A stretch of 64,000 nucleotides of DNA from a virus (IMGVR_UViG_3300030012_001572:1-64000), one strand, 5' to 3'. Counted from the first letter of the stretch, positions 6,107 to 62,926 are shown. Numbers and translations: made by a program. Notes: generated from the letters alone by a model not told the origin.

Positions 6107-6191
6107 TGCTGAGAGCAGGATTTGAACCTGCGAACCAAATGTGGACAGGAGTTTAAGCCCTGCGCTTTTAACCATGCTCAGCCATCTCAGC
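6107..6191 (-). tRNA. tRNA-Leu (anticodon TAA), long variable arm
   Basis: Reverse complement GCTGAGATGGCTGAGCATGGTTAAAAGCGCAGGGCTTAAACTCCTGTCCACATTTGGTTCGCAGGTTCAAATCCTGCTCTCAGCA; acceptor stem GCTGAGA/TCTCAGC, discriminator A. Confidence 0.92.
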
Positions 6192-6347
6192 GTATTTACT
6201 TGAACAAAAAGAAATGATTACTAATTATAATCACACGGATGAAAAACCTCACGCTTTGCATACTGTTCAAGTAATATGCGGGTGGCGAGCCGTATATAGT
6301 GCGACCCGCAGGGGGTCAAACATTGATTGAATAAGATTTAATGGTTC

Positions 6348-6599
6348 TCAATTGAACCATGTAAGATAAATGACCCAAGAAATGAGTCCTACGATGATAC
6401 TTCCCCAAAATAACTTTAATCGCAAGTTATTGATGGGATTACATCTTTTTTTCAGACAGTAATGACTTGTTGATATAGTTCCTTTATGCACATAAGTTTC
6501 TAAAAGATGATTAGAGCCTTCGGGAATATCAATTCCGCACTTTTGGCATATTTCATCTTTTTCGGCTTTTACATATACTTCTTCAACTAAACGCATCAC
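6348..6599 (-). CDS. Zn-finger protein with C-terminal transmembrane helix
   Basis: CQKC...HYC; hydrophobic C-terminus. Confidence 0.7.
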   Translation of the reverse strand: MMRLVEEVYVKAEKDEICQKCGIDIPEGSNHLLETYVHKGTISTSHYCLKKRCNPINNLRLKLFWGSIIVGLISWVIYLTWFN

Positions 6600-6762: not shown

Positions 6763-7230
6763 TCATTCATCAGATGGCAAAAGGCTTTCAACTGAACCAT
6801 CCCAGTTTCCGTCCTTAAACATCTTAGATAGGTTATTACGGGTTCTTTTAACGACTGCTGAAGCATAATCCTCAGCACCCTCGTATGAACCGCCACCACT
6901 CTTAATGTGCTTCATGGTGATTGCACCAATAATTGCATCGTGGTTGTAGTATTGAACACTTGCTTCTTCAACAACACCGCAAATGCGGTCAATTGCTACT
7001 CTAACGGAAGCAGGAACAGCAGATTTTTGACCCCTTCGGAAAGGTGTTCCATCTCTACCCTTTAATAGAGCCTTTAATGCGCCTAAAGCAGCATCTCGCT
7101 CATTTGGGTTGTTCTGTCCTATTTGTAGGTTCAATTCAACAACTTGGCGCAATCCAGCATCCAAAGTCGTGTCGGCTTCAAGGTATTCGTTCACTTCAAT
7201 AACAAGTGAATCCCATTGTGTGTTATCCAT
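6763..7230 (-). CDS. Hypothetical protein, distant paralog of 9807..10346 and 11389..11895
   Basis: Shares N-terminal W, RRG(Q/R)(K/E)S, GGxY and KxGxWDGS motifs; TTTATATA box at ~7291-7298 on the minus strand. Confidence 0.85.
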   Translation of the reverse strand: MDNTQWDSLVIEVNEYLEADTTLDAGLRQVVELNLQIGQNNPNERDAALGALKALLKGRDGTPFRRGQKSAVPASVRVAIDRICGVVEEASVQYYNHDAIIGAITMKHIKSGGGSYEGAEDYASAVVKRTRNNLSKMFKDGNWDGSVESLLPSDE

Positions 7231-7489: not shown

Positions 7490-7830
7490 CCTTTGAGAAG
7501 ATTCTCAAGATACGATAAAGTTAGATTCTTCGCATTTATGTTGCATAACTAACTAAAAATGGCTGTTTTTGATTGAGGTTTCTCACTTTTCTCGTTTCTC
7601 ACGATTCTCAATAGGTCTTTCTGTCTATTACTACATAACCCATAAGAAACTGATAGCATAAGTAAGAAGAAATTAAGGGGTAAGTAGTAGTAGAAGAATG
7701 AATGAATGAATGAGAAATGAGAAAATTGAGAAAAGTAAAAAAATATATTACTTATGTCTACATAACCCCTAAGATTCTTGCTTGACTTACATTTCTCACT
7801 CGCTCAATCGGATGAGAAACCTAAATTAAA
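7490..7830. repeat. AT-rich divergent region with iteron-like TTCTCA/TGAGAA repeats (candidate origin or terminus)
   Basis: TTCTC(A/G) x4 at 7579-7611; (GAAT)n followed by TGAGAA x3 at 7696-7735; TTGAGAA-G-ATTCTCAA palindrome at 7493-7508; direct repeat CTACATAACCC(A/C)TAAGA at 7631 and 7758. Confidence 0.6.
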
Positions 7831-7999
7831 TCATTATAATATAATATTAATATTAGAATATGAATACGAATTAATATAAGACCAATTGAAAATAAGATAG
7901 AGAAAGAGTAACTATTCTGAGGGGTGATAAATTATCCCTGATAGGAGGAATGAATATACTCTCATTTAGGATAAATCTGCGTTTTATGACGCATTCGCT

Positions 8000-8040
8000 A
8001 TCATATGGTTGTAAATTGCTTTGCAATTAAGACCCTATAT
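8000..8040 (+). repeat. Array element S1 (partial, lacks CAAAG arm) plus TATA-like box
   Basis: CATATGGTTGTAAATTGC-TTT-GCAATTAAGACC-CTATAT. Confidence 0.85.
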
Positions 8041-8071
8041 GCCGCAATCAGCCCGTTGTTGAAGTGATACT

Positions 8072-8791
8072 ATGTCTATACAATATGTAAGAACAATGAA
8101 GATTAATTACGGAGATAAAATGAACGATTTGGACTTTAACAAACTAAATGGTGCTTTGGCTGAAAAAGGTGTCTATTTGATTGACTCTTTTAGCCGTGTT
8201 GATACCGATAATTACGGTTATGTCCATGTTGAAGATAACACTACTGTTTATGGAATTGTTATTGAAGATGAAGTTCAATTTACTGTTGATTATGAATTTG
8301 ATGCAAAAATAATTACTGATGGTCTTTACAACCTTCACAAAGATTGCCATTACAATGAAATTAATACTACTGTTAAAACCCAAAAGTGGGCTGAGCCTGA
8401 AGGAAACCAATTACAATTTACTATGCCTCTTGATGGTGAAGTTCAAAATTTTGACTGTTGGGGTAATAACCACATTCTTTATGAAAATGGTGCAAAAATG
8501 TATGCTTTCCTTGACAATGATTATACTGGAATGGTTTTGCGTTTCCGTGTTGTTTGGGAGCAAGAGAATGTTCAGCGAAAAGAAGCCATTGAAGATGCTA
8601 TGGTTCAAACCGTTCTAAATGACATGGGTAGAATACAAAAAGCCGTCGAAAGCCGCCTTAAACTCAAAAAGTTTGGATATAATGTTGAAGAAGTCGGAAT
8701 TGATTGTCATTTCGATGCTAAGACCGAATCAAGGTCAGAATGCGCTCCAGACATCATTAAGCAAGTTAGGGAGGCAAGAAAGGGTAATTAA
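8072..8791 (+). CDS. Hypothetical protein (cassette 1)
   Basis: 239 aa ORF; alternative start ATG 8120 after GGAG. Confidence 0.85.
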   Translation: MSIQYVRTMKINYGDKMNDLDFNKLNGALAEKGVYLIDSFSRVDTDNYGYVHVEDNTTVYGIVIEDEVQFTVDYEFDAKIITDGLYNLHKDCHYNEINTTVKTQKWAEPEGNQLQFTMPLDGEVQNFDCWGNNHILYENGAKMYAFLDNDYTGMVLRFRVVWEQENVQRKEAIEDAMVQTVLNDMGRIQKAVESRLKLKKFGYNVEEVGIDCHFDAKTESRSECAPDIIKQVREARKGN

Positions 8792-8810
8792 AGCCCTTAA
8801 ATCCGTAAGA

Positions 8811-8884
8811 CCCCACAGGGGGCAGGGTTATTGCAAAGCATAACCATATGGTTGTAGTTACTTTGTTATGCGAAAACCATATAT
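8811..8884 (+). repeat. GC hairpin plus array element S2
   Basis: CCCC-ACA-GGGG hairpin; CAAAG 8834, ACCATATGGT 8843, CTTTG 8861, AACC-ATATAT 8875. Confidence 0.9.
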
Positions 8885-8907
8885 TTCATTGTTCATGTAT
8901 TACCGTT

Positions 8908-9268
8908 GGAAGTCATGAGCCAACAGGGATTGACTGAATACCCTCATGGTCGGGGGTAAAGTGCTTGTTTTCGTGTGGTGCGACATATGAACACCTAATG
9001 CCCGTATGGGTGAGGGTTTTCCTCTATGAAAGTGATTAAGGCTCAAAAGGCGCATTCTTACCAAGAATGTTCATAAGCAAGGCAGATAGGCTCTTAAGAC
9101 ATAAGAGCGACCATAAGTGAGTGCGACCCAATCGCATCTATCTTAGTGATACCCAATTCACTATCCCACCCTTTTACTCCATTTATGCCCTTAAGCGAAG
9201 AGAAAGCGATGATAGAGGCTGAAAAAGGCACATATGTATAAAAATATCAATTACAATCAGATACTTCC
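8908..9268 (+). ncRNA. Putative ~360 nt structured non-coding RNA (cassette 2), family unknown
   Basis: No ORF of 60 aa or more; starts ~25 nt after the TATA-like box; ends pair (GGAAGT/ACTTCC); many nested helices, several with G-U pairs; followed by the usual GC hairpin. Confidence 0.7.
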
Positions 9269-9272
9269 CTGT

Positions 9273-9342
9273 GCCCCCTTTTGGGGTTTAATGCAAAGCA
9301 ACACCATATGGTTTTAGAATCTTTGATGATAAAACCCTATAT
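9273..9342 (+). repeat. GC hairpin plus array element S3
   Basis: CCCC-TTTT-GGGG; CAAAG 9294, ACCATATGGT 9303, CTTTG 9321, AAAACC-CTATAT 9331. Confidence 0.9.
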
Positions 9343-9362
9343 CTCACCAATTACCGTTTATC

Positions 9363-9641
9363 ATGTGCAAAGATTGTGTAAGAGCATTGAATACTATTAG
9401 CAAAGGAATGTCCGAGTTTCTCCGAGATGGTTTTGAAAACGCTATTGTGCGAGATATGTCTCCAGAAATGAATGATGAAGAAGGAATGTTCCATTTGTTC
9501 ATTTATGAATTAGTCGCAGAAACAGCGAAGCATGTCATTGATTTGACCGTTATGGAGGAATTGACTACTCAATTAATGGATAATCTCATGGAGGCCGCTA
9601 TTGATTCCAAACTACGCAGATTCCAAGATAAGCATGCTTGA
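9363..9641 (+). CDS. Hypothetical protein (cassette 3, probably leaderless)
   Basis: 92 aa; ATG ~25 nt after the TATA-like box, no RBS. Confidence 0.8.
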   Translation: MCKDCVRALNTISKGMSEFLRDGFENAIVRDMSPEMNDEEGMFHLFIYELVAETAKHVIDLTVMEELTTQLMDNLMEAAIDSKLRRFQDKHA

Positions 9642-9642
9642 A

Positions 9643-9740
9643 TCCCTTTGGCGAGGGTTTTTCCCTCATTTTCCCCTCGCCATCGGGTTATCAAAGCAAA
9701 CCATATGGTTGTAAATACTTTGGATTTACAACCTTATGAA
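9643..9740 (+). repeat. GC hairpin plus array element S4
   Basis: GGCGAGGG...CCCTCGCC hairpin; CAAAG 9692, ACCATATGGT 9700, stem GGTTGTAAAT/ATTTACAACC around CTTTG 9718. Confidence 0.9.
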
Positions 9741-9806
9741 TCATTAAATCCCAATATACGCTTCAAGGGGCGAAAGACTTGAAGAACACAACAGGAGGAA
9801 TAAATT

Positions 9807-10346
9807 ATGAAGATTAAGAACTGGAACATGAATACAAGCAAGGTTCGGGCATGGGCTGAAAACCAACCCGAATCGGATAACTTACAGGCTGTCCTACTTT
9901 CTCTCACATTGGGAGATAATGCGACATCTGATGAACTAAGAAGCACTTATTGGACTGCAATTCGTTCAATTGGCAGCACTATGCCTAATTTTCCGAAGGC
10001 TCGTCGTGGGAGAGAATCAACGCTTACCGACAATCAAGAAATTGTATTGGCGACTGTGGAGGAAAAAGTAGCGGCTGCTTATGCATCAATCCCTACTGAA
10101 TACCATGACATTCTATTGTCTGTAATCGTCCCACACGGGCGAACTGGTGGAGTTTACGCCAGTATTGATGATATGGTCGCACATTACAAGAAACAAGCAC
10201 ATAACTACATTATGCAGTCATTGAAAGACGGTAGAGTGGCTTTGACTGATGAAGGCGAATTTGACCTTGATAAGTCAGGTATGCTACAAATCACCCCTCG
10301 TCCGACTAAAGACGAGGATTCCGAAGGAGGTTCGGAAGACGAGTGA
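9807..10346 (+). CDS. Hypothetical protein (cassette 4), paralog of 11389..11895
   Basis: Shares RSTYWTAIRSIGS, FPKARRGRES and PHGRTGG; GGAGGA RBS. Confidence 0.9.
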   Translation: MKIKNWNMNTSKVRAWAENQPESDNLQAVLLSLTLGDNATSDELRSTYWTAIRSIGSTMPNFPKARRGRESTLTDNQEIVLATVEEKVAAAYASIPTEYHDILLSVIVPHGRTGGVYASIDDMVAHYKKQAHNYIMQSLKDGRVALTDEGEFDLDKSGMLQITPRPTKDEDSEGGSEDE

Positions 10347-10371
10347 TTCGGCAAGGATTTCGCCCCTTGTC

Positions 10372-10440
10372 GCCCCTTGCGGGGGGTTTACACAAAGTAA
10401 AACCATATGGTAGGGCTTTGTTCTACCTTACGATATATCA
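10372..10440 (+). repeat. GC hairpin plus array element S5
   Basis: CCCC-TTGC-GGGG; CAAAG 10393, ACCATATGGT 10402, GGTAGGGC-TTT-GTTCTACC. Confidence 0.9.
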
Positions 10441-10458
10441 CCCATTTTAACGGTTATC

Positions 10459-10743
10459 ATGCGAAAGATTACAGAAGACGCAATAAGAGCATTTAGAAAC
10501 AGACAGGAATTTAAGCGAGGAAATACTGAAGTTCGGGTTTTTGGGCATCTTTGCCAACTCCGCCTTCATGGAAATGTTATCGCTGAAGATAAAGACGGTG
10601 AATTATGGATTACTTCGGCTGGTTGGGAATCAAACACTACAAAAGAGCGACTTAACGGTTTTCCGACTGTTTCAATTCATCAAAAGGATTATCAATGGTA
10701 TTTAAACGGTAATGTATGGGATGGGGAATGGATATTAATTTAA
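10459..10743 (+). CDS. Conserved phage hypothetical protein (cassette 5, probably leaderless)
   Basis: MRKI...NTEV...LHGNVIA...AGWESNTTKERLN resembles a family common in marine phages (from memory). Confidence 0.85.
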   Translation: MRKITEDAIRAFRNRQEFKRGNTEVRVFGHLCQLRLHGNVIAEDKDGELWITSAGWESNTTKERLNGFPTVSIHQKDYQWYLNGNVWDGEWILI

Positions 10744-10834
10744 GTAATACTGTGGAGAGCGTTTTTAATTGTTTTCGCTCAGGTAATAGAGCCACGCATA
10801 GGGTAAATGTGCAAATAGCCGAAATAAAAAACAA

Positions 10835-10896
10835 TTCCCGCCTTTGGGTAAAGACAAAGCAATACCATATGGTTGCGCTTTGTGCAACCTTATACA
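10835..10896 (+). repeat. Weak hairpin plus array element S6
   Basis: CAAAG 10855, ACCATATGGT 10864, GGTTGCGC-TTT-GTGCAACC, TTATAC. Confidence 0.9.
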
Positions 10897-10919
10897 TACT
10901 ACTCATTTAATCGTATATT

Positions 10920-11240
10920 ATGACCAACCAATATAATGTTGCACTTTGCGCTGGACGACACGAAATTAAGACAAATGAGGGCGTTAGTGTTCCTAATGCT
11001 ATTTATGAGCATATTCAGAATCCTATGGATTTTGATTTCTTGGAAGGTCAGGCTAGCGAGTTTGTGTATTTTTTGCAAGATAACGATGTTGAGATTCTAA
11101 ATCTTTACATTACTGGTTTAACTCCAGCATTAACTTCATTTTTGGCATTAGCGAGCGAATGGGGAGGAAAAATTACATTGTGGCACTTTGACCGTGAAGA
11201 TTTCAGTTATAAGCCTCAATACTTTCAAAACTGGATGTAA
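10920..11240 (+). CDS. Small alpha/beta protein, possible CARF/SAVED-like nucleotide-binding fold (cassette 6)
   Basis: GRH motif; LNLYITGLTPAL strand-helix; ITLWHFDRE..SYKPQ terminal strands. The ORF is secure, the fold is tentative. Confidence 0.6.
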   Translation: MTNQYNVALCAGRHEIKTNEGVSVPNAIYEHIQNPMDFDFLEGQASEFVYFLQDNDVEILNLYITGLTPALTSFLALASEWGGKITLWHFDREDFSYKPQYFQNWM

Positions 11241-11242
11241 TC

Positions 11243-11320
11243 CGCCCCTTCGGGGGTATTACCAAAGATACTACCATATGGTTGTAATCGCTTTGCGCTT
11301 GTGTAATTACAACCTTATCC
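11243..11320 (+). repeat. GC hairpin plus array element S7
   Basis: GCCCC-TTCG-GGGGT; CAAAG 11263, ACCATATGGT 11273, stem GGTTGTAAT/ATTACAACC around CTTTG 11291. Confidence 0.9.
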
Positions 11321-11388
11321 GTCATTTGGTCGGTATTAGTGCTTCGGAAGGCATTGAGGCAGATTTCCCCTTATTGGAGGTAATTATT

Positions 11389-11895
11389 ATGAATGAAAAG
11401 AATTGGATAAAAAACACAAGTGAAGTCAGTCTATGGCTTGAAAAGGAAGATAGAGGTGATAATGGCAAGGCTATTGAATTGTCTATTATGCTCGGAAACA
11501 ACAGTAATGACGACGATATGCGTTCAACCTATTGGACGGCTATTAGGTCTATTGGGAGCGTTTATGCGGATTTCCCAAAAGCCCGTCGTGGTCGAGAATC
11601 TGCTTTGCCCGACGAAGTGGAGCAAAATGCGATTTCTGTGAAGAATGCGGTTTACGCTGCCTTTGCGGGTATTTCTAACCAAGAAGTCGTTTTGGCTGCG
11701 GTTTTGCCACATGGTAGAACTGGTGGTGCTTATGCTGATATTGACGCATTGGCTACCCATTATGCTAAGCAAGCGTATAATGCGCTTGTAAAGGGCTACA
11801 AAGAAGGTCGTTGGGATGGTTCTATGAACGGTGAAATCCCTACTATGACCCCACCTGCTGTTAAATCAGCCGAAGGAGGTCAAGAGGAAGAATGA
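11389..11895 (+). CDS. Hypothetical protein (cassette 7), paralog of 9807..10346; start reassigned to ATG 11389
   Basis: GGAGGT RBS before MNEKNW, which aligns with MKIKNW of the paralog. Confidence 0.9.
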   Translation: MNEKNWIKNTSEVSLWLEKEDRGDNGKAIELSIMLGNNSNDDDMRSTYWTAIRSIGSVYADFPKARRGRESALPDEVEQNAISVKNAVYAAFAGISNQEVVLAAVLPHGRTGGAYADIDALATHYAKQAYNALVKGYKEGRWDGSMNGEIPTMTPPAVKSAEGGQEEE

Positions 11896-11913
11896 TGCGG
11901 AAATGCCTTCCGT

Positions 11914-11970
11914 CGCCCCCTTCGGGGGGTTTCCTCTACGATGGCAAAGCCAAACCATATGGTTGTTGTA
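11914..11970 (+). repeat. GC hairpin plus array element S8 (lacks the CTTTG hairpin)
   Basis: CCCCC-TTCG-GGGGG; CAAAG 11945, ACCATATGGT 11954. Confidence 0.85.
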
Positions 11971-12154
11971 ATGTATATATAGACTATATATGGTTCATTA
12001 TAGACGCTAAATGGATTATTTAGGGATGTATGACTCGGAACATAATATTTAACAGTTGCGTGATGCGTTCTATAGAAATCTATTCAAATAGCGCATATAA
12101 TTCTATTCGATGAAATAAATCTATATATATTGCAATTCATCTCAATAGACTATA

Positions 12155-12172
12155 TACAACCATATGGCTTTG
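12155..12172 (-). repeat. Inverted terminal array element S9
   Basis: TACAACCATATGGCTTTG = reverse complement CAAAGCCATATGGTTGTA. Confidence 0.75.
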
Positions 12173-12335
12173 TTTCAAATTTTTTATTTTTGTTCATTTA
12201 AATGAATAAGCATCAATTAATCAATTTTAAACCAAAAAGCATTTATTCCACTACTTTAAAACATTAATTAGTTTAGATTAAAGGTTATTCCGAGCATATT
12301 ATATGCTATGACTTCCACCCATTAAGTGATACAGT

Positions 12336-54761: not shown

Positions 54762-55925
54762 ATGTATGATGTATTATTAGGAAAACAAAGAGGACTTGTT
54801 TTTCCTATAATGTGTAATGGCGGAGTAGTTATTGATTATCACGATAATGTTCCCTCTTTTAATAGTGCGGTTGATGATGTTAGCGAAAATATAACTGAAG
54901 CACATATTGGTTATGGTTTGTGGGCTAATCAAGGGTCTTTTACTTTAGAAGCAATTATTACTCCATATGACATAAATGGATATGGAAAAATATCAAGTGC
55001 TACTCAGCCTACTATTGCTAACAGTAAAAAAATAATGCCTTCTAATGACCATCAATCAACAACTACTGATTATCAAAGTGAAAGATATTTACCAGTAGCA
55101 AATAGAAATGATTATGAAATGACTTTGTTTAGCAACTATGACTCAACTAATAATCCTACTTTTTGGTTTGGCTTAGTTAATACTACTTTACATAATGAAA
55201 ATCAACCAGCAGAATATAAATTAAGAGCAGTAATGAAAATAAATAATGTAACTGAAACTTTTGATTCTCCTGTTTGCATTAGTCCTACATATTTAAGACG
55301 ATTTAAATATAACAACGATAATTTACAAACTTTTGATGAAGATGGAATGGGAGGGTATCGCTCTATTGGCTCTATTGCGAGCCATACGGCTACGGATTTT
55401 ACGGCTGACGCTGATGGATTCACGACTACAAATCTGTTCAATGGAGGCCGTTTAGAGGTCTTCTATCGTAGCGGATTTTCGTTTGAATCGCTCGGCTTTA
55501 TCACGGCTAATTCATCAACCACCATCACCATAAACGCCAGTTTTTCAGGAACTTTAGCAAGCGGAAGTGAGTTATTTATTCGCAGTTATGCAGAACCCGA
55601 ATACATAAACGACCAATTTCATGTCGCTTGTGTATTTAATTCCACAACAAACTCAATTACTTTCTTTATTAACGGTAATCAAATTTTTACAAATAAACAT
55701 ACACAAACAACTGCTTTTTCTTTTTCTCCTAATGATTGCATGATAGGTCAAGCCTTATCCCATAAAGGATTTAATACTGCTGATATAAACAAACAATATA
55801 TGGGAGAAATACATGAAATGAGTATGATGGATATTGCAAGAAAAAACTTTGTAGCAACATTTAATTTATTACCAAATTATGAAAATGTTTTGTTTTATTA
55901 TAGATTTGAGGAGGTAGATTTATAA
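54762..55925 (+). CDS. Tail protein with LamG/concanavalin-like domain
   Basis: FTLEAIITP, FHVACVFN, FFING, YMGEIHEM. Confidence 0.75.
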   Translation: MYDVLLGKQRGLVFPIMCNGGVVIDYHDNVPSFNSAVDDVSENITEAHIGYGLWANQGSFTLEAIITPYDINGYGKISSATQPTIANSKKIMPSNDHQSTTTDYQSERYLPVANRNDYEMTLFSNYDSTNNPTFWFGLVNTTLHNENQPAEYKLRAVMKINNVTETFDSPVCISPTYLRRFKYNNDNLQTFDEDGMGGYRSIGSIASHTATDFTADADGFTTTNLFNGGRLEVFYRSGFSFESLGFITANSSTTITINASFSGTLASGSELFIRSYAEPEYINDQFHVACVFNSTTNSITFFINGNQIFTNKHTQTTAFSFSPNDCMIGQALSHKGFNTADINKQYMGEIHEMSMMDIARKNFVATFNLLPNYENVLFYYRFEEVDL

Positions 55926-58900
55926 TGGCAATAAGAGTTCTAAATAAAGGAGAACTAACTCCTTCTTCGGCATCTAATCAAAATACCTCAAATAATCCTA
56001 TGGTTCATTGTGATAATTTAGTTTCTAGCACAAACCCCTTAGCAGTTATTATTTATCCTGATGATACTACTTCCGAAACAATACAAAGAATTGTTTTAGC
56101 AGCAGATATGCTGACAGACTACTCTAATTTAGAAAAAACAGAAGGTAATACATTAAAGGTATATGATTCTTTTTCGCAAGAAGGAATTGATTTAAGTTCA
56201 TTAACTGATATAACAACTCATCATTACTTTGTTATGGTTCATTCTGATAATCATTTATTGCATCATTTTGCTAAAATTACAGAAATACATACTACTGACG
56301 CTTTTGGTGATAGTATAAAATTTGAACCGAGTTTAGGTAATGAAATAAATCATGGAGTAAAATTCAAATTATTTAAAGGGCCAGCAGTTAGTAGTGATTT
56401 CATTTCAATCGGTTTAGGAATAAAGAAGGATTTACAAAATTCACTACAAGTAGCCCGACCTTATTTTTGGTTTAATAGAGATGTGAATGAATTAGAAAGC
56501 AATACTAAACATTTTATTAGAGTTAGAGAAATAACAGTCGGGTCATCTTTGAATCTATCAACAAGCAGTTCTGATACAACATTCTTAGTTTCTCAAAACT
56601 ATGCTAATGAAATCAAAGACTATGGTAAATTTACTTTAAAAACAAAATTAGTAGATAATTTGAGAAATTTAGATATTGAAGGCTTTACTCCAATAACATT
56701 TACTGGAGATATGCATGCTGTAAATCATCCTGATGAAATAAGAAATATTACTGGCATTAGTTCTGGAACTATTAATGATTTATTATATAGAGGAATAGTC
56801 AGAAACAATGTTCCTGATGGAACTTATGTTACAGAAATTTTAAGTTCTAATTCAATTCGTATTTCTCAAAATGTTACTGCGGCAGTTTTAACAACCTCCT
56901 TTACTGTAAGTCATTCTAATGAAAGCCATGCATTAGCATCAAATGATTTAACAGATTATGAAACTTCTTTCTTTAATGCAAGAAGAGACGCTGATGATTT
57001 AATTTTACCTTCTGCTTCTAATTATACATCAAGAGGCCCGACAAGATATTTACACTATGATTTTTCAAAAGACAAAGCAAATTATAGTTATAATGTTATT
57101 GACTTAAAAATTAATGAATCTATTAAAGGGAAAACTTCTTTTTCTGAAACACAGATTGCAGACATGATGAAAATATATCCCAATAAACTAGAATTACACA
57201 GTCCTATGAGGGCAAGACAAAGATTAAGTAGAGATAAGTTGAATAAATTTGTTGATACTGGTTTAAGTGTAGGAGCAAACGGAATGCTTACAGGTAATGA
57301 TGGTTTGGGCAATCAAATAGTTTCTGTTCATATTGTAAATGTTAATAGTTATTTTACAGCAGGAGAAGAAATAAAAATAGAAGATAGATTATATATAATT
57401 TTATCTATAAATTCAGGAACAAATACTATTACCCTATTACAAGCAGATACTACTATTGATGGTTCACCTAACACTTATTCTCGACTTGAAACAGAATCAT
57501 CTTATACAGATATTGGAACACCTACAATTAATGTGGGAGATTCTGTTTTTAGAAGAGCATATAGTCCTTTTAATAAAACTCTTATTAATAGTTTTGATTT
57601 AATTAGCAATAGGCATGAAGACTTATATTTAATTACTACTTCCCAAAATGCTACATATAATTATTTTAAATGTAGTGCGATAGATGCAAGTAATAATCTA
57701 CTTACATTTACTGTTAATTTAGATAAATATTTAGAAGAAGGATTACATTTAAATAATGACTACTATTTATATTATGAAAAATTAAATGGAACAATAGAAG
57801 TATTAGACTATTATAGAACAGATGGACAAAGCATAATGAGAGTAGAGGGTAGAGACATTATGAGTAAAATATTGTCTCCTGTTGTAAATAATGATACTTT
57901 ATTTAGTGAAGACATAATTTATTCTTCTTTTGGAACAATTAATCACTTAGAACAAATAGGGTTTGTTGAAGCAAGTTTCAATAGTCAAGTTATTAATATA
58001 AAAGATACTTCAAATGTTTCTGCTTCAATCACCTTAATTGCAGGAGATAAATTATATGTTCGTAGTAAATCAAACTTCTTTAAGCCATTAGGCACAGTTT
58101 TAACAGGCAATACAGGAAATCAATTCAATTTAGAAAGAGAAAGTAATGTTGAATGTGGCGGAGACACCTTTACAAATGGCGGTGTATTTGAATTATATAA
58201 AGCAGTAAAAAATGGTAGTCAGCCCGTTAAGAATTATATATTTAATAAAGCATTATCAAGTAATATACTGGTTGATTCAGTTACCTCTTTATCGGGAAGT
58301 TCAAACAAAGGATTATATTTTACTTCAGGAGTTTCTTTAAATAATTTAGGTAATGATGATACTCCTTTAGTTAATACTTCTTCATCAACTGATTCAAGAG
58401 CAATAGGTTATCATATAAGTAAAGTTAGCGGTGATATTGACGGTGCAGACTATCAATGTGTTTTAGGAGATGGAGCATCAACTGAATCACACGAAAATAT
58501 ATTAACAATAAATACTTTGATGGATTTTTCTGTTATATCTGTAAAAGAAAACGATGGCGGAAAAATAATAGAAATTGCTCCTTATATTCCAGCAACTCTA
58601 GGAAGACTAGAATCTAACTTAGCAAACAACTATGATGCTACAAAAACTTCAATTGGATTTACTTTAGGAGATGCTTTGATAACAGATTTACAAAATTTTA
58701 TTAATGTTTCTAGTTCTGATAGTTCATATGTTGCACTTTCAGAATTATTTATCAGAAGAAATGATTCTGTATTCATTAATGATAGATTTGTTGGTTTTGC
58801 CTTAGAACAGCATTTATCAGAAAATCATTGTTTTATTGTATTAGATAGACAGGTATTTTATGAAACAGGTCAAACTGTTACAATTATTCATAATAGATTT

Positions 58901-61900
58901 GGTCTTAGTAAAGGAACATTAGGTGATGGCCCAAGTTCTGATAATAAAAATACTCATGAATTAGAATTGATAAATGTAGGACACTTACACGGAGGTAAAA
59001 TTATTTCTAATGTGTTTGATTATGAATCAGTTAATGGATTAAGAACCTTTGATTTTGGTTTAAAATATAATGATGGTAGCGAAATAACTTCTTTTGAAAA
59101 GTTTGGTAATCCCAGTTATGCGATATATAGTCTTGAAAAAGGAGATAATACTAATTATGCTGCCAGTTATAAAGTTAATTTTCATAGAGATACTTATGCT
59201 AAAGTTAAAAGTAGATTGGTAGATTCATCTAATATTTATAACCATTTACCAATTGAAGGCAGGGGATTTTACACCCCTACTTATTCTAATTTTGATGATA
59301 AACAAATAGGAGTATCAAGCACCCTTCAAACATACGGTTATCCTTCTACTTTCCCATTTATTATTGCTAGTGGAAATGTCTTTTCAACAGCCGCAAACGC
59401 ACAATTAGTCGCAGGTAAATTCAATACAAATACTTCTCAAAATATACAGATTAGGAAAAAATCGGTTGATAGAATGTTTTTATTTGTTAATTCAGATGAG
59501 AACCCTTACCATGAAAATAGATTAGACAGTTTGTGTAATCCTTTAAGAACCAGAAATATTTCTGATTATGGAATAGTTGGTTTATTGCCTCTCAAGAATA
59601 CAAATACTCAAGATGACAATAATCAAGATATAAACACCCAAAGACACACTAATGTAGATGAAGAATATTCTTTTTCTAATATTGTTTCTTCTGATAAAAG
59701 CATAAATTCTTTAATGAATGTAGGTATTATGAGATTAACAGAAGTCGTAGTTGATTGGTCTTTTAATCAAATAGACCCCGAAGATATTCAAGATGAAATG
59801 ATTACTGATGCGGCAGTAAAAGAAATTTTTACACCAACAACATTAGAAGAAGATGGTGTTGCTATTTATACTCAAGCAGGAAGTTATAATGTAGGTGGCG
59901 ACCCAAACAGCATACAATTTTATAATGCTCCTACTGGCGGAAGTATTGTCAATTTCGCTTCAACCCTTGTAGAAGCGGGAGATGCTATAATTGCTGATGG
60001 AACAGGATTTTTGATTGGTTTTTGTTTAAACAATAACCCCAATACATTAATGTCGGATGCTTTGTTTGCTAATTCAAATAAAAGTGCATATTACATAGGT
60101 GAAGTTAAAAAAATTAAAAAGGCTAATATTGCAGGAAGCGATTTAAAAGGAAGACAAAAAGACACTTTTATGGGCTTTGATGATACATTAAGTATGTTAA
60201 GAACAGGATATTTCAATAGTCCTGCCCATACTTCTACACAAAAACAATTAGTTCTTGATAATCAAAATTCCCCCAATGAGATTCATGCTCATAGTTCAGG
60301 TAGCACACCTTCTGAATCATCAAGTTGGTTTGCTTTACAATTTAATGATAGTAGCGGAAATAAAGTCGGTTTCTTTTTCTGGTTTAATGTAGAAAATTCT
60401 GACGGTAATCAAATAGATACTATTCCAGCCGTCTATGCTAGTGATTATTCGCCTCATTCTGATGGGATAACATATACTTCTGTTGAAATACAATTAGCAA
60501 ACGGATATAGTGATACTGATTTCCATGCGGCTTTAGCAACGGCTTTTGATTCTGTTAATTTAAGAACAAATCATGTTTTTGGTGGGAATGAAGCAAATGA
60601 TTCTAATGCTGCTACTTATGGTGGAGCAACAGTTACTCAATTAAGAACAAAAAGAGCCGCACCAAATAATTTTTATGAAACTACTGCCTTACTTAATCAT
60701 CACCCCGTTTCTACTGTTACTACGGTAAATGTAGATATTACCGCAGATGACACAGGATGGGGTGGTAATCCAAGTGCATATTACAATAAATGGAGTGAAA
60801 TTCTAGGAGGGCAAATAAATAATTATGTTTCAATACCAAGAAAAGGAGGAACTTATTTGCCAGTTTCTATTGCAACCCAATATACTTCTACTCCTACATT
60901 TTATTCAGATATATTAACTAATATTGCAGGTTCTCCTTTATCTACTTCTTTTGCTGATATTTCTACAACAGATGCCAATGAGTTAAAATATACTGATTTT
61001 ATACCAGTAGCACTAAGAGGATTTGTAATAGAAGACTCAAAAGGTAAAAAGAAAATAAATGCTGGCGAATCATTCCCTAAAATTAAATCACTATTTAGAA
61101 AAAATATTAGCAGTTCTCATACTATATTTGGTTTAACTTCAGAATATTCTACTTGGTTTAATAAATATAAATACTATATGGATTTAGGGGCAACAAAAGA
61201 AGAAAATACAGATTTACCAAATGAAGGAAATGGTTTAAAAATAGGATTTAAACCTAGATTAGATGCTTCTTTAGCGACTCTAATTTCAGGAACTCAAAGA
61301 AGTAATTCAGGAAATAGAATATATAATTATTCTTTTAATACTAATAACACTAAATTATCTTGGTTAAGAGATTTAGACTTAACTGGTTGTTATTTAGTTA
61401 GAGTAAGCGGAACTAATATTGATAATAACTATTTTGTAGAAGGCTTTGGTTTCGCTTATGTTATTTCACATGAAATAGACCCAAGCGATTCTAATAAAGT
61501 AATCTTAACTACTTCAACAAATTTAGGCCCGAATACATATAGAATATTACAACCTAATCATACTTGTTTTTATGACTTTACTCCGACTCAAATAAATATA
61601 GGCCAACTTTCAAGTTCCTATACAAAAAAGCCTAAAATAAATGAATGCTATGAGGATTCTTTGAAAAGCCATGCACTTGATGATGTAAGCATGGATAATG
61701 ATAGTATTAACGACCAAGAAGCAATAGGCTCAATATATGTTTTAATTGACTTAACAGGTGATGTTTCGTCTGGTGATAAAATAATAAATACTAGCATGAG
61801 AAGAGAATTTTTCGATAATTTACCCACTACAATTTGTTTAAGTGACGGAGAAGAAACTTTCAAAACAGGAATGCAATCTAACAGTTTTAGTCTTACATTT

Positions 61901-62926
61901 GATAGTCTGAAAGAATTAAAAGGAATAGTTAGCCTTAGTGAAATAATTACTTTAAATGTAGGAAAAAACTTTAACAAAGATAGTAAACGATGTTTGATAG
62001 GGAATACTGTAAATATTGTTCAAGAATCTGAAGAACTGGCTAAAAGTTTATTAGAAAAAGAAAATATAAGTTTCACTTCTATAAATGAACCTAGTTATCC
62101 TTTATTTACTGCTCCTAACTTTCAAGGAAATGATTTGTTATCCGCTACTAGATTTTTATTAGGTAAAAAAGATAGAGATATTGAAGTTATTGATGGTAAT
62201 TTTGTAATTGATGATGAAGAAGCAACTAATAAATATGCAAATGTATTATTATCAGAAAACAGTAAATATCAAATATATGAATTTGAAAAACAAAAAACGA
62301 CCTTTTCTTTCTATAATGAAGTCATTGTTTATGGTAGTTCGCATAAATCAATTAAAAAAGATTTACGAAGCGTTAAAAAGATAGGAAGAAAAACATTGGA
62401 AGTGTTTGATAATAAATTGATTACTCAAGAAGATGTAGATAAAGAAGCAAGAGAACTATTGAAACTGCACTCTCAATTAAATGAGTCGTATAAAGTCACG
62501 GTATCAACAACGGGATTAGAACAAATAAAAAGCGGAGACATAATACAATTTGAACTTAAAAGAGAAAATGTAGATAGAGATGAATATATTATATTATCCG
62601 TAGAACATAGACTCTCTAATCTTATGGAATTAGAATTAGGAAAATATGCTAAATCATTGGATGATAGATTAGTAGAAATTTTACAGGAAACTAAAGATAC
62701 TAAATCTCACTTAAGAAGTAAACAATTCGCTGAAAAAACAGAAACCATTGAAACCTTAGATACTATTAAAATTAAGGAAATAAGAACATTAATAAGAAAA
62801 AGAAGCACTACTGGAAATCCTCTCACGCTTGGCTTTGGAACAAATCTAAATACAAGTAGCGTTGAACTAGGATTTGAGGGTGGACAAACTATCACGATTA
62901 CAAATTTAAGGGAGGAAAACATATGA
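55925..62926 (+). CDS. Very large tail-tip/hub protein (2333 aa)
   Basis: S/T/N-rich beta protein; VEGRD hub motif; C-terminal YNEVIVYG...IKSGDIIQF...VEH typical of tail hubs. Confidence 0.8.
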   Translation: MAIRVLNKGELTPSSASNQNTSNNPMVHCDNLVSSTNPLAVIIYPDDTTSETIQRIVLAADMLTDYSNLEKTEGNTLKVYDSFSQEGIDLSSLTDITTHHYFVMVHSDNHLLHHFAKITEIHTTDAFGDSIKFEPSLGNEINHGVKFKLFKGPAVSSDFISIGLGIKKDLQNSLQVARPYFWFNRDVNELESNTKHFIRVREITVGSSLNLSTSSSDTTFLVSQNYANEIKDYGKFTLKTKLVDNLRNLDIEGFTPITFTGDMHAVNHPDEIRNITGISSGTINDLLYRGIVRNNVPDGTYVTEILSSNSIRISQNVTAAVLTTSFTVSHSNESHALASNDLTDYETSFFNARRDADDLILPSASNYTSRGPTRYLHYDFSKDKANYSYNVIDLKINESIKGKTSFSETQIADMMKIYPNKLELHSPMRARQRLSRDKLNKFVDTGLSVGANGMLTGNDGLGNQIVSVHIVNVNSYFTAGEEIKIEDRLYIILSINSGTNTITLLQADTTIDGSPNTYSRLETESSYTDIGTPTINVGDSVFRRAYSPFNKTLINSFDLISNRHEDLYLITTSQNATYNYFKCSAIDASNNLLTFTVNLDKYLEEGLHLNNDYYLYYEKLNGTIEVLDYYRTDGQSIMRVEGRDIMSKILSPVVNNDTLFSEDIIYSSFGTINHLEQIGFVEASFNSQVINIKDTSNVSASITLIAGDKLYVRSKSNFFKPLGTVLTGNTGNQFNLERESNVECGGDTFTNGGVFELYKAVKNGSQPVKNYIFNKALSSNILVDSVTSLSGSSNKGLYFTSGVSLNNLGNDDTPLVNTSSSTDSRAIGYHISKVSGDIDGADYQCVLGDGASTESHENILTINTLMDFSVISVKENDGGKIIEIAPYIPATLGRLESNLANNYDATKTSIGFTLGDALITDLQNFINVSSSDSSYVALSELFIRRNDSVFINDRFVGFALEQHLSENHCFIVLDRQVFYETGQTVTIIHNRFGLSKGTLGDGPSSDNKNTHELELINVGHLHGGKIISNVFDYESVNGLRTFDFGLKYNDGSEITSFEKFGNPSYAIYSLEKGDNTNYAASYKVNFHRDTYAKVKSRLVDSSNIYNHLPIEGRGFYTPTYSNFDDKQIGVSSTLQTYGYPSTFPFIIASGNVFSTAANAQLVAGKFNTNTSQNIQIRKKSVDRMFLFVNSDENPYHENRLDSLCNPLRTRNISDYGIVGLLPLKNTNTQDDNNQDINTQRHTNVDEEYSFSNIVSSDKSINSLMNVGIMRLTEVVVDWSFNQIDPEDIQDEMITDAAVKEIFTPTTLEEDGVAIYTQAGSYNVGGDPNSIQFYNAPTGGSIVNFASTLVEAGDAIIADGTGFLIGFCLNNNPNTLMSDALFANSNKSAYYIGEVKKIKKANIAGSDLKGRQKDTFMGFDDTLSMLRTGYFNSPAHTSTQKQLVLDNQNSPNEIHAHSSGSTPSESSSWFALQFNDSSGNKVGFFFWFNVENSDGNQIDTIPAVYASDYSPHSDGITYTSVEIQLANGYSDTDFHAALATAFDSVNLRTNHVFGGNEANDSNAATYGGATVTQLRTKRAAPNNFYETTALLNHHPVSTVTTVNVDITADDTGWGGNPSAYYNKWSEILGGQINNYVSIPRKGGTYLPVSIATQYTSTPTFYSDILTNIAGSPLSTSFADISTTDANELKYTDFIPVALRGFVIEDSKGKKKINAGESFPKIKSLFRKNISSSHTIFGLTSEYSTWFNKYKYYMDLGATKEENTDLPNEGNGLKIGFKPRLDASLATLISGTQRSNSGNRIYNYSFNTNNTKLSWLRDLDLTGCYLVRVSGTNIDNNYFVEGFGFAYVISHEIDPSDSNKVILTTSTNLGPNTYRILQPNHTCFYDFTPTQINIGQLSSSYTKKPKINECYEDSLKSHALDDVSMDNDSINDQEAIGSIYVLIDLTGDVSSGDKIINTSMRREFFDNLPTTICLSDGEETFKTGMQSNSFSLTFDSLKELKGIVSLSEIITLNVGKNFNKDSKRCLIGNTVNIVQESEELAKSLLEKENISFTSINEPSYPLFTAPNFQGNDLLSATRFLLGKKDRDIEVIDGNFVIDDEEATNKYANVLLSENSKYQIYEFEKQKTTFSFYNEVIVYGSSHKSIKKDLRSVKKIGRKTLEVFDNKLITQEDVDKEARELLKLHSQLNESYKVTVSTTGLEQIKSGDIIQFELKRENVDRDEYIILSVEHRLSNLMELELGKYAKSLDDRLVEILQETKDTKSHLRSKQFAEKTETIETLDTIKIKEIRTLIRKRSTTGNPLTLGFGTNLNTSSVELGFEGGQTITITNLREENI

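Follow-up and report, generated by a model that had tools for sequence, protein, structure and literature searches.

What does a short, palindrome-centred element do between the genes of a viral gene block: does it move them, switch them on, or act in their RNA? The question is raised by positions 8,000 to 12,172 of the viral sequence IMGVR_UViG_3300030012_001572, of which the first 64,000 nt form the window (coordinates count from its first letter). An earlier note on this stretch had described an array of single-gene cassettes punctuated by a structured element, and had offered an integron-like system, an RNA processing element or ribozyme, and a hairpin-dependent early promoter as explanations. 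The answer we favour, and hold to be fairly probable, is that the element is the promoter, operator and hairpin junction module of shufflable, self-contained accessory-gene cassettes.

The repeated unit and its probable promoter

The CCATATGG-centred element is present in nine copies between 8.0 and 12.2 kb, the number given in the earlier note. Its core is the 10-mer palindrome ACCATATGGT, exact in seven copies (8843, 9303, 9700, 10402, 10864, 11273 and 11954) and with one mismatch in two (8000 and 12159); none of 100 shuffles of the window reached this count. Eight of the nine CCATATGG in the whole 96-kb genome lie within one 3.4-kb stretch (8.8-12.2 kb). Reading the copies side by side bore out the unit order that had been claimed: a GC hairpin, CAAAG, 4-5 nt, the palindrome, a variable arm, CTTTG, the complementary arm, ACC and a TATA-like box. 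The first seven intervals each hold one gene or RNA, again as described, with six open reading frames (ORFs) and one manA-like RNA (between S2 and S3). The units and the associated hairpins are as follows.

8000-8041, plus strand: unit S1, degenerate core with one mismatch, without upstream CAAAG; hairpin 8007-8034 with CTTTG loop, present in the minimum-energy fold (-6.2 kcal/mol); ACC 8032-8034, TATA-like box 8035-8040
8834-8885, plus strand: unit S2, CAAAG 8834-8838, core 8843-8852, CTTTG 8861-8865, ACC 8876-8878, TATA-like box 8879-8884; covariance model E 0.026
9294-9343, plus strand: unit S3, CAAAG, core 9303-9312, hairpin with CTTTG 9321-9325, ACC 9334-9336, TATA-like box 9337-9342, ATG 26 nt on
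9692-9741, plus strand: unit S4, CAAAG 9692-9696, core 9700-9709, 10-bp hairpin, CTTTG 9718-9722, ACC 9731-9733, TATA-like box 9734-9739; -8.2 kcal/mol, z -2.9
10393-10439, plus strand: unit S5, short arms, CAAAG-N4-core-N4-CTTTG forming a complete dyad; two G.T pairs in the hairpin, ATG 26 nt on from the TATA-like box; covariance model E 1.4e-5
10855-10897, plus strand: unit S6, short arms, one G.T pair in the hairpin, ACC 10887-10889, TATA-like box 10890-10895; covariance model E 8e-6
11263-11322, plus strand: unit S7, CAAAG 11263-11267, core 11273-11282, long interrupted hairpin, ACC 11312-11314, TATA-like box 11315-11320; -8.0 kcal/mol, z -3.3
11945-11963, plus strand: unit S8, left half alone (CAAAG and core), right side without CTTTG hairpin
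11964-12158, no strand assigned: S8-S9 interval, 195 nt, AT-rich, non-coding, without ORF, varying among relatives
12159-12195, plus strand: unit S9, terminal element of the array, core joined straight to CTTTG with no stem, then runs of six and five T
9274-9286, plus strand: example of the GC-rich 3' hairpin that closes each cassette and travels with the upstream gene in relatives
About 8811-8821, 9650-9681, 10371-10386, 10837-10848, 11242-11256 and 11914-11929: the other GC-rich 3' hairpins

The distance from core to CTTTG varies between 3 and 14 nt, in promoter-type and terminator-type halves alike. In the S8-S9 interval, TATA-like boxes point inward from both cores and ATAGACTATATA is repeated. 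Several relatives that have diverged elsewhere retain the S9 stretch (12159-12200, ~45 nt) at 93-97% identity, and its T runs may be an archaeal terminator of the array or another control site.

The source record is a 96,129-bp viral genome with a 99-bp terminal repeat, and the window is its first 64 kb. The major capsid protein matches tailed viruses of archaea only. The gene set of this ~96-kb, terminally redundant genome (ribonucleotide reductase, GroEL, split PolB, two ATP ligases, tRNA-Leu and tRNA-Arg) is that of the group-B magroviruses (Philosof et al. 2017, PMC5434244). By its gene content the virus fits a complete group-B magrovirus, a tailed virus of marine group II archaea, and with such a host the promoters are expected to be of the BRE/TATA type (BRE, B recognition element). 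A crAss-like or N4-like phage with a virion RNA polymerase was dropped as a candidate, the capsid being of archaeal-virus type. The 2333-aa protein at the end of the tail module (55925-62926), tried as a virion RNA polymerase, was rejected; it lacks the DFDxD motif and has no match in any collection searched (Pfam, PHROGs, PDB sequences and a phage collection). No viral RNA polymerase was recognised in the genome, many ORFs of which remain unannotated.

ACC joined to a Y-TATA box is located 25-30 nt before the ATG of the S3, S5 and S6 genes, and a TATA box at this distance from the ATG is the spacing of leaderless archaeal mRNAs. The S4 and S7 genes have leaders with GGAGG. The TATA-like box fits an archaeal (BRE/TATA) promoter, so that the hairpin-dependent early promoter of the earlier note was half right: its promoter part stands, with ACC, TATA-like box and archaeal spacing at three ATGs, and its hairpin dependence and early timing are putative. 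A k-mer search for a shared promoter in the replication arm returned only ribosome-binding-site words.

The genome also encodes a homologue of transcription factor B (TFB, the archaeal TFIIB) outside the window.

Genome 90334-91266 (L118:10334-11266), minus strand: viral TFB/TFIIB homologue, beside a ThiF/E1 gene

A TFIIB zinc ribbon forms its N-terminal part, and it has two cyclin repeats that have diverged. The 86 homologues on viral contigs are named TFIIB by the Joint Genome Institute, and a profile of the family matches human TFIIB (E 8.6e-6) and both Pyrococcus TFB cyclin repeats (E 4.5e-4). At Pfam sensitivity, ParB, TATA-binding protein (TBP) and the TFIIB cyclin repeat gave no match in the genome. 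The gene is present in 19 of the 24 array-bearing records and in 11 of the 12 that are at least 90% complete, and its product is a natural candidate reader of the ACC at the BRE position.

The sense-strand hairpin and its covariation

Scanning viral contigs for the pattern turned up more than 115 loci with the element, many from contigs of 60-97 kb with 4-12 copies, and 46 viral loci with 276 cores formed our comparative set. The earlier note had claimed that the variable arms differ between copies and stay complementary, and this holds across the family, where the arms have many different sequences. With 41 units in a MAFFT alignment blind to pairing, the covariation score was 0.284 as compared to 0.084 in shuffled data (reached in 0 of 500 shuffles), and controls with slid positions gave 0.03-0.15. 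With 110 distinct units it was 0.376 against 0.096 (0 of 500) in a covariance-model alignment, a score that comes from a model-fitted alignment with the model built from the 41-unit set. We also scored 105 units with the 3' arm anchored on the promoter motif alone. Here the three variable pairs beside the fixed GGT/ACC (positions 4-6 from the stem base) were Watson-Crick in fractions of 0.80, 0.68 and 0.59, as compared to 0.39, 0.28 and 0.31 when permuted, and each position exhibited several pair types. Swapping the 3' arms between units of equal spacing weakened the mean fold energy from -5.39 to -3.53 +/- 0.11 kcal/mol.

The covariance model found six window units at E 0.026 or better and gave no score below E 0.6 outside the array in the whole genome. 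Applied to the relatives, the check that the earlier note had suggested, it identified 114 units, spread over 43 loci. The stem is conserved over a short length, about six pairs counted from its base, and CTTTG lies in a loop of variable size; window stems extend further, and stems overall range from 3 to 12 bp with loops mostly larger than 3 nt. Hairpin strength differs little with the presence of a promoter (5.7 versus 4.8 Watson-Crick pairs, p 0.004).

The sense strand, which carries CTTTG, folds better than its complement in 214 units, and the reverse is true in 56. When only Watson-Crick pairs were used to choose the stems, the ratio of internal G.T to A.C pairs was 38:10, and 17:2 in promoter-type halves, so the note's observation that G-T wobbles favour folding of the plus strand holds family-wide. 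In left-hand halves the wobble bias is on the outward strand (10:4, not significant). Covariation together with the sense-strand wobble excess supports selection on the hairpin as a single-strand fold on the gene-sense strand, as the note had proposed.

The same note had suggested that the middle arm can pair upstream instead, giving two exclusive folds or a pseudoknot. The fixed letters do have dyad symmetry, by which CAAAG can pair with CTTTG and ACC with GGT. In the upstream-pairing fold the variable letters pair at 0.28 as compared to 0.41 when permuted, no better than chance and if anything worse, and this fold is the minimum-energy structure in only one of seven window copies. We therefore rejected the bistable fold, because its variable parts lack covariation and what remains is the invariant dyad motifs. 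The symmetry reflects instead that the full element consists of two hairpin modules set back to back and facing outward. Relatives with divergent genes have a hairpin plus TATA on both sides of the element; in the one-directional array of the window, the left hairpins are weak and abut the GC hairpin of the previous gene.

Cassettes, relatives and the genome

Gene families recur among the arrays in differing order and orientation. For the S7 cassette, which we aligned in four genomes, similarity begins at the core: to its right the genomes share hairpin, promoter and gene, and the sequence to its left is unrelated apart from the fixed motifs. On the 3' side, similarity continues through the gene end, GC hairpin and CAAAG as far as the next core, beyond which the sequences diverge. 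Where the homology of this cassette ends, locus L051 continues with another gene, and it also has the cassette 6 gene after, not before, the next cassette. At the same point L056 (within 6130-6590, minus strand) has an extra mini-cassette of ~170 nt, placed exactly between two palindromes and absent from the genome of the window, with a 13-codon, Lys- and Gly-rich ORF and with a hairpin and promoter of its own. The S6 slot of L023 is occupied by a different gene, and homology resumes inside the S7 core. L016 has the cassette of the Kyano_Gp96 family (f4) inverted between the same outer flanks. The aligned loci thus show relatives gaining, losing, replacing, reordering and inverting cassettes, with homology that ends at the palindrome. 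Since the order is not fixed and the breakpoints fall at the element, in the S7 cassette, L023 and L016 among others, the shuffling is real, and the cassette array with varying content, order and orientation that the earlier note had described is borne out.

The integron-like system that the note derived from this array is not. The complete genome gave no match to the tyrosine recombinase family PF00589 at E up to 1, and no serine recombinase, Y1 HUH transposase or Hjc at Pfam sensitivity, with controls positive in both searches. In the absence of these enzymes an integron is not supported; moreover, every cassette has its own promoter and cassettes lie in both orientations. A ribozyme, as in the note, or a known RNA element is likewise not supported: an Rfam scan with E as high as 5 found nothing at the element.

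When one genome from each of 185,579 prokaryote species was scanned with a strict pattern, the hits were chance single ones, one contig excepted, so that the element belongs to viruses and not to the hosts scanned. The exception (L139, NZ_NZTP01000027.1, 14.8 kb, labelled as an Altibacter sp. metagenome-assembled genome) has seven element matches and is probably a mis-binned magrovirus fragment in a bacterial bin. A blastn search of the array against the phage collection found nothing.

The genes and the RNA of the array are as follows.

8072-8791, plus strand: cassette 1 gene, 239 aa, family f7 (found in nine related loci)
8905-9172, plus strand: cassette 2, manA-like non-coding RNA (RF01745), no ORF
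9363-9641, plus strand: cassette 3 gene, 92 aa, leaderless spacing
9807-10346, plus strand: cassette 4 gene, 179 aa, family f0, 5' leader with GGAGG
10459-10743, plus strand: cassette 5 gene, 94 aa, Pfam Kyano_Gp96 / phrog_554, no known function
10920-11240, plus strand: cassette 6 gene, 106 aa
11389-11895, plus strand: cassette 7 gene, 168 aa, second plus-strand f0 paralogue, 5' leader with GGAGG
6763-7230, minus strand: third f0 paralogue, directly left of the array, with an ACC and TATA-like promoter but no palindrome

The majority of the cassette proteins have no Pfam or PHROG function. No gene is commoner in the arrays than that of family f0, their hallmark protein: it numbers 57 members across 36 loci, and this genome has three paralogues. 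Its proteins are about 160-200 aa long and have conserved P-x-R-x-G-x-x-S, HGK-GG and W-DG motifs and an acidic tail. The predicted structure is all-alpha (predicted local distance difference test score, pLDDT, 88). Foldseek returned no match to this model at E 0.001 or better, VIA-align returned generic three-helix-bundle matches only (Z below 8, residues 1-67), and in a protein atlas f0 falls in unnamed viral clusters only. The manA-like RNA matches Rfam RF01745 over the full model length with large insertions (48.3 bits, E 2e-10) and does not reach the gathering score of 55.2; we class it from this match as a relative of manA, not a curated member. It has its own cassette promoter and no gene downstream, its structure may extend to about 9268, and homologous copies are present in L022 and L082.

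The cassettes form the accessory-gene block of the genome, at the point from which the replication and structural arms run apart. An AT-rich divergence zone at 7600-7900 coincides with the minimum of the cumulative GC skew and contains the direct repeat CTACATAACCC..TAAGA at about 7631 and 7758, plus short repeats of the GAATGA type; it is a candidate replication origin or additional promoter region. Among the genes of the replication arm, all on the minus strand, are an ERCC4/XPF-type nuclease with helix-hairpin-helix motifs (genome 68879-69568), a PD-(D/E)XK (Cas4/Exo5-like) nuclease (genome 70886-71791) and a histone-fold protein (PF00808, just above the cut-off; genome 81140-81583).

Explanations and comparison with known systems

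As a promoter, operator and junction module, the element would work as follows. A cassette spans palindrome to palindrome: it begins with the right half-palindrome, followed by the sense-strand hairpin with its CTTTG loop, the BRE-position ACC joined directly to the TATA box, and a leaderless or short-leader gene or the manA-like RNA, and after the GC-rich 3' hairpin it closes with CAAAG and the left half-palindrome of the following copy. Each unit would be started at its own promoter by the RNA polymerase of the host, together with TBP and with a TFB that is either the host's or the viral one. The invariant palindrome may be the shared putative binding site of a dimeric factor that co-regulates the block and, as the only long identical stretch, may also be the site of exchange between cassettes or co-infecting genomes. 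The hairpin would be a promoter-linked single-strand structure, serving as an insulator or attenuator, as in the promoter early stem-loops of T4-type phages, or as a recognition feature. Several points weigh against this explanation. For ordinary homologous recombination, a shared stretch of ten base pairs is short. Folded as DNA, each hairpin by itself is weak (-4.1 to -8.2 kcal/mol, z -0.4 to -3.3). The GC skew is positive on this strand, so strand-biased deamination could contribute to the G.T excess. Finally, the variable spacing between core and CTTTG is more in keeping with a motif in a loop than with a rigid half-site of an operator.

A dedicated site- or structure-specific exchange, with cutting and rejoining at the palindrome by an unrecognised enzyme that may use the folded hairpins in the manner of attC sites, would account for the breakpoints within the 10-bp core. 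Because the palindromic site is symmetric, such exchange would give insertion, excision and inversion of cassettes, and inversions do occur. The core is invariant across diverged lineages while its flanks are free, the structure is conserved in single-strand form, and the genome encodes the ERCC4/XPF-type structure-specific nuclease, the PD-(D/E)XK nuclease and two ligases. These enzymes, however, are ordinary replication and repair genes of all magroviruses (PMC5434244), and the genome lacks the recombinases, transposase and Hjc named above. The resolution of the breakpoints is no finer than the shared motif, and the promoter in every cassette gives the element an obvious regulatory job. We consider dedicated exchange unlikely. 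If true, it would be a new archaeal-virus counterpart of the integron, in which promoter-carrying cassettes are inserted, excised and flipped by an enzyme outside the recognised recombinase families.

The hairpin might instead work in RNA, carried by read-through transcripts in which it attenuates, insulates or marks a processing site between cistrons. The sense-strand wobble bias would fit RNA, and read-through is plausible, as the cassettes have no long T runs and strong ones occur only after the last element. In T4-type phages, promoter-overlapping stem-loops act as terminators (PMC2839356). The position of the hairpin is nevertheless upstream of the predicted start of its own gene, and the first unit of an array, with no cassette upstream, retains it. 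The tract 3' of the stem is insufficiently U-rich for archaeal termination as it is established, no Rfam family matches, and the left-half bias noted above is on the outward strand and not on the plus-sense read-through strand. A role in RNA therefore seems to us improbable, to about the same degree as dedicated exchange. Least probable of all, in our estimate, is a plain double-strand operator, in which the palindrome and CAAAG/CTTTG are read by a dimeric repressor or activator, and the complementarity of the arms merely follows from the correction of quasi-palindromes as the DNA replicates. A perfect 10-bp dyad does lie beside the BRE/TATA, in units S5 and S6, with their short arms, the dyad extends over all 28 bp, and inverted repeats that overlap the BRE were proposed as operators in other archaeal viruses (PMC11065993). 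But a rigid duplex half-site is hard to square with the varying distance between CTTTG and the core, the arms covary through many different sequences, and the asymmetry of G.T over A.C is unexpected for duplex recognition.

Magroviruses rank among the most abundant archaeal viruses of the surface ocean, and viruses and hosts are both uncultured. To our knowledge, nothing is known of how they control and diversify their genes, and we know of no described mechanism for a hairpin, in DNA or RNA, that covaries and has a fixed place beside an archaeal BRE. The magrovirus literature searched makes no mention of promoters, palindromes or hairpins, and we found no paper that describes the element; a full-text search with the 8-mer and "archaea" gave only unrelated papers among the matches listed. 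The 10-mer with hairpin and TATA could serve as a marker of accessory genes, probably early or anti-defence genes, in any magrovirus contig. It would supply a promoter class that can be paired with the virus's own TFB, and the palindrome is a concrete site for following gene flow among these viruses in metagenomes.

Two more distant systems share some of these features. The boundaries of the cassettes resemble integron attC sites in part: their hairpin arms covary, with single-strand folding, a strand preference and variable cassette content. Unlike the integron, whose promoterless cassettes share one orientation and are read from a common promoter, the magrovirus has no integrase and its cassettes carry their own promoters in both orientations, and unlike attC the site has an invariant 10-bp palindromic core and fixed 5-nt motifs. 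The hairpin promoters of phage N4 form on the template strand with a short fixed stem and a 3-nt loop at a fixed distance from the start, and need the phage (virion) RNA polymerase (PMC4496689). As in N4, a small hairpin lies at an early-type promoter and is repeated before several genes. Unlike N4, the magrovirus favours the sense strand and has stems of 3-12 bp, and with no viral RNA polymerase recognised a promoter of the N4 type is not supported.

The nearest analogues appear to be the early-gene regulatory sequences of archaeal viruses and the promoter early stem-loop (PeSL) cassettes of T4-type phages. In the former, single-gene early units, with anti-defence genes, share one regulatory sequence around the BRE/TATA, sometimes with inverted repeats at the BRE (Nat Commun 2024, PMC11065993). 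The magrovirus likewise has single-gene units of small uncharacterised proteins that share one BRE/TATA regulatory sequence (seven in the window), whereas those viruses are crenarchaeal, have other motifs, and have no covarying hairpin or exchange at the motif described.

In PeSLs, a promoter is joined to or overlaps a stem-loop with G-T pairs (Arbiol et al. 2010, PMC2839356). They also include a GC-rich terminator stem-loop, are enriched before ORFans and mediate modular shuffling (PMC2839356). The magrovirus motif is similarly intergenic, repeated and concentrated in a block of small ORFan genes. Its stem-loop with G-T pairs adjoins a putative host-type promoter, the 3' arm ending at the BRE position; a GC-rich stem-loop lies at the gene ends; and indels and replacements between relatives end in the module. 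It is an analogue of PeSLs and not a member, since its promoter is BRE/TATA with an archaeal host and not sigma-70. The magrovirus module also adds the invariant 10-bp palindrome and the conserved CAAAG/CTTTG loop motifs, it has dyad symmetry with cassettes that are also flipped, and the shared identity is much shorter. PeSLs further have promoter and terminator activity and form mini-circles by exchange between motifs that lie near each other. New in the magrovirus are its marine archaeal host, a palindrome that does not vary, a hairpin on the sense strand that covaries, holds a fixed motif in its loop and abuts the BRE, and a dyad layout through which cassettes can be flipped.

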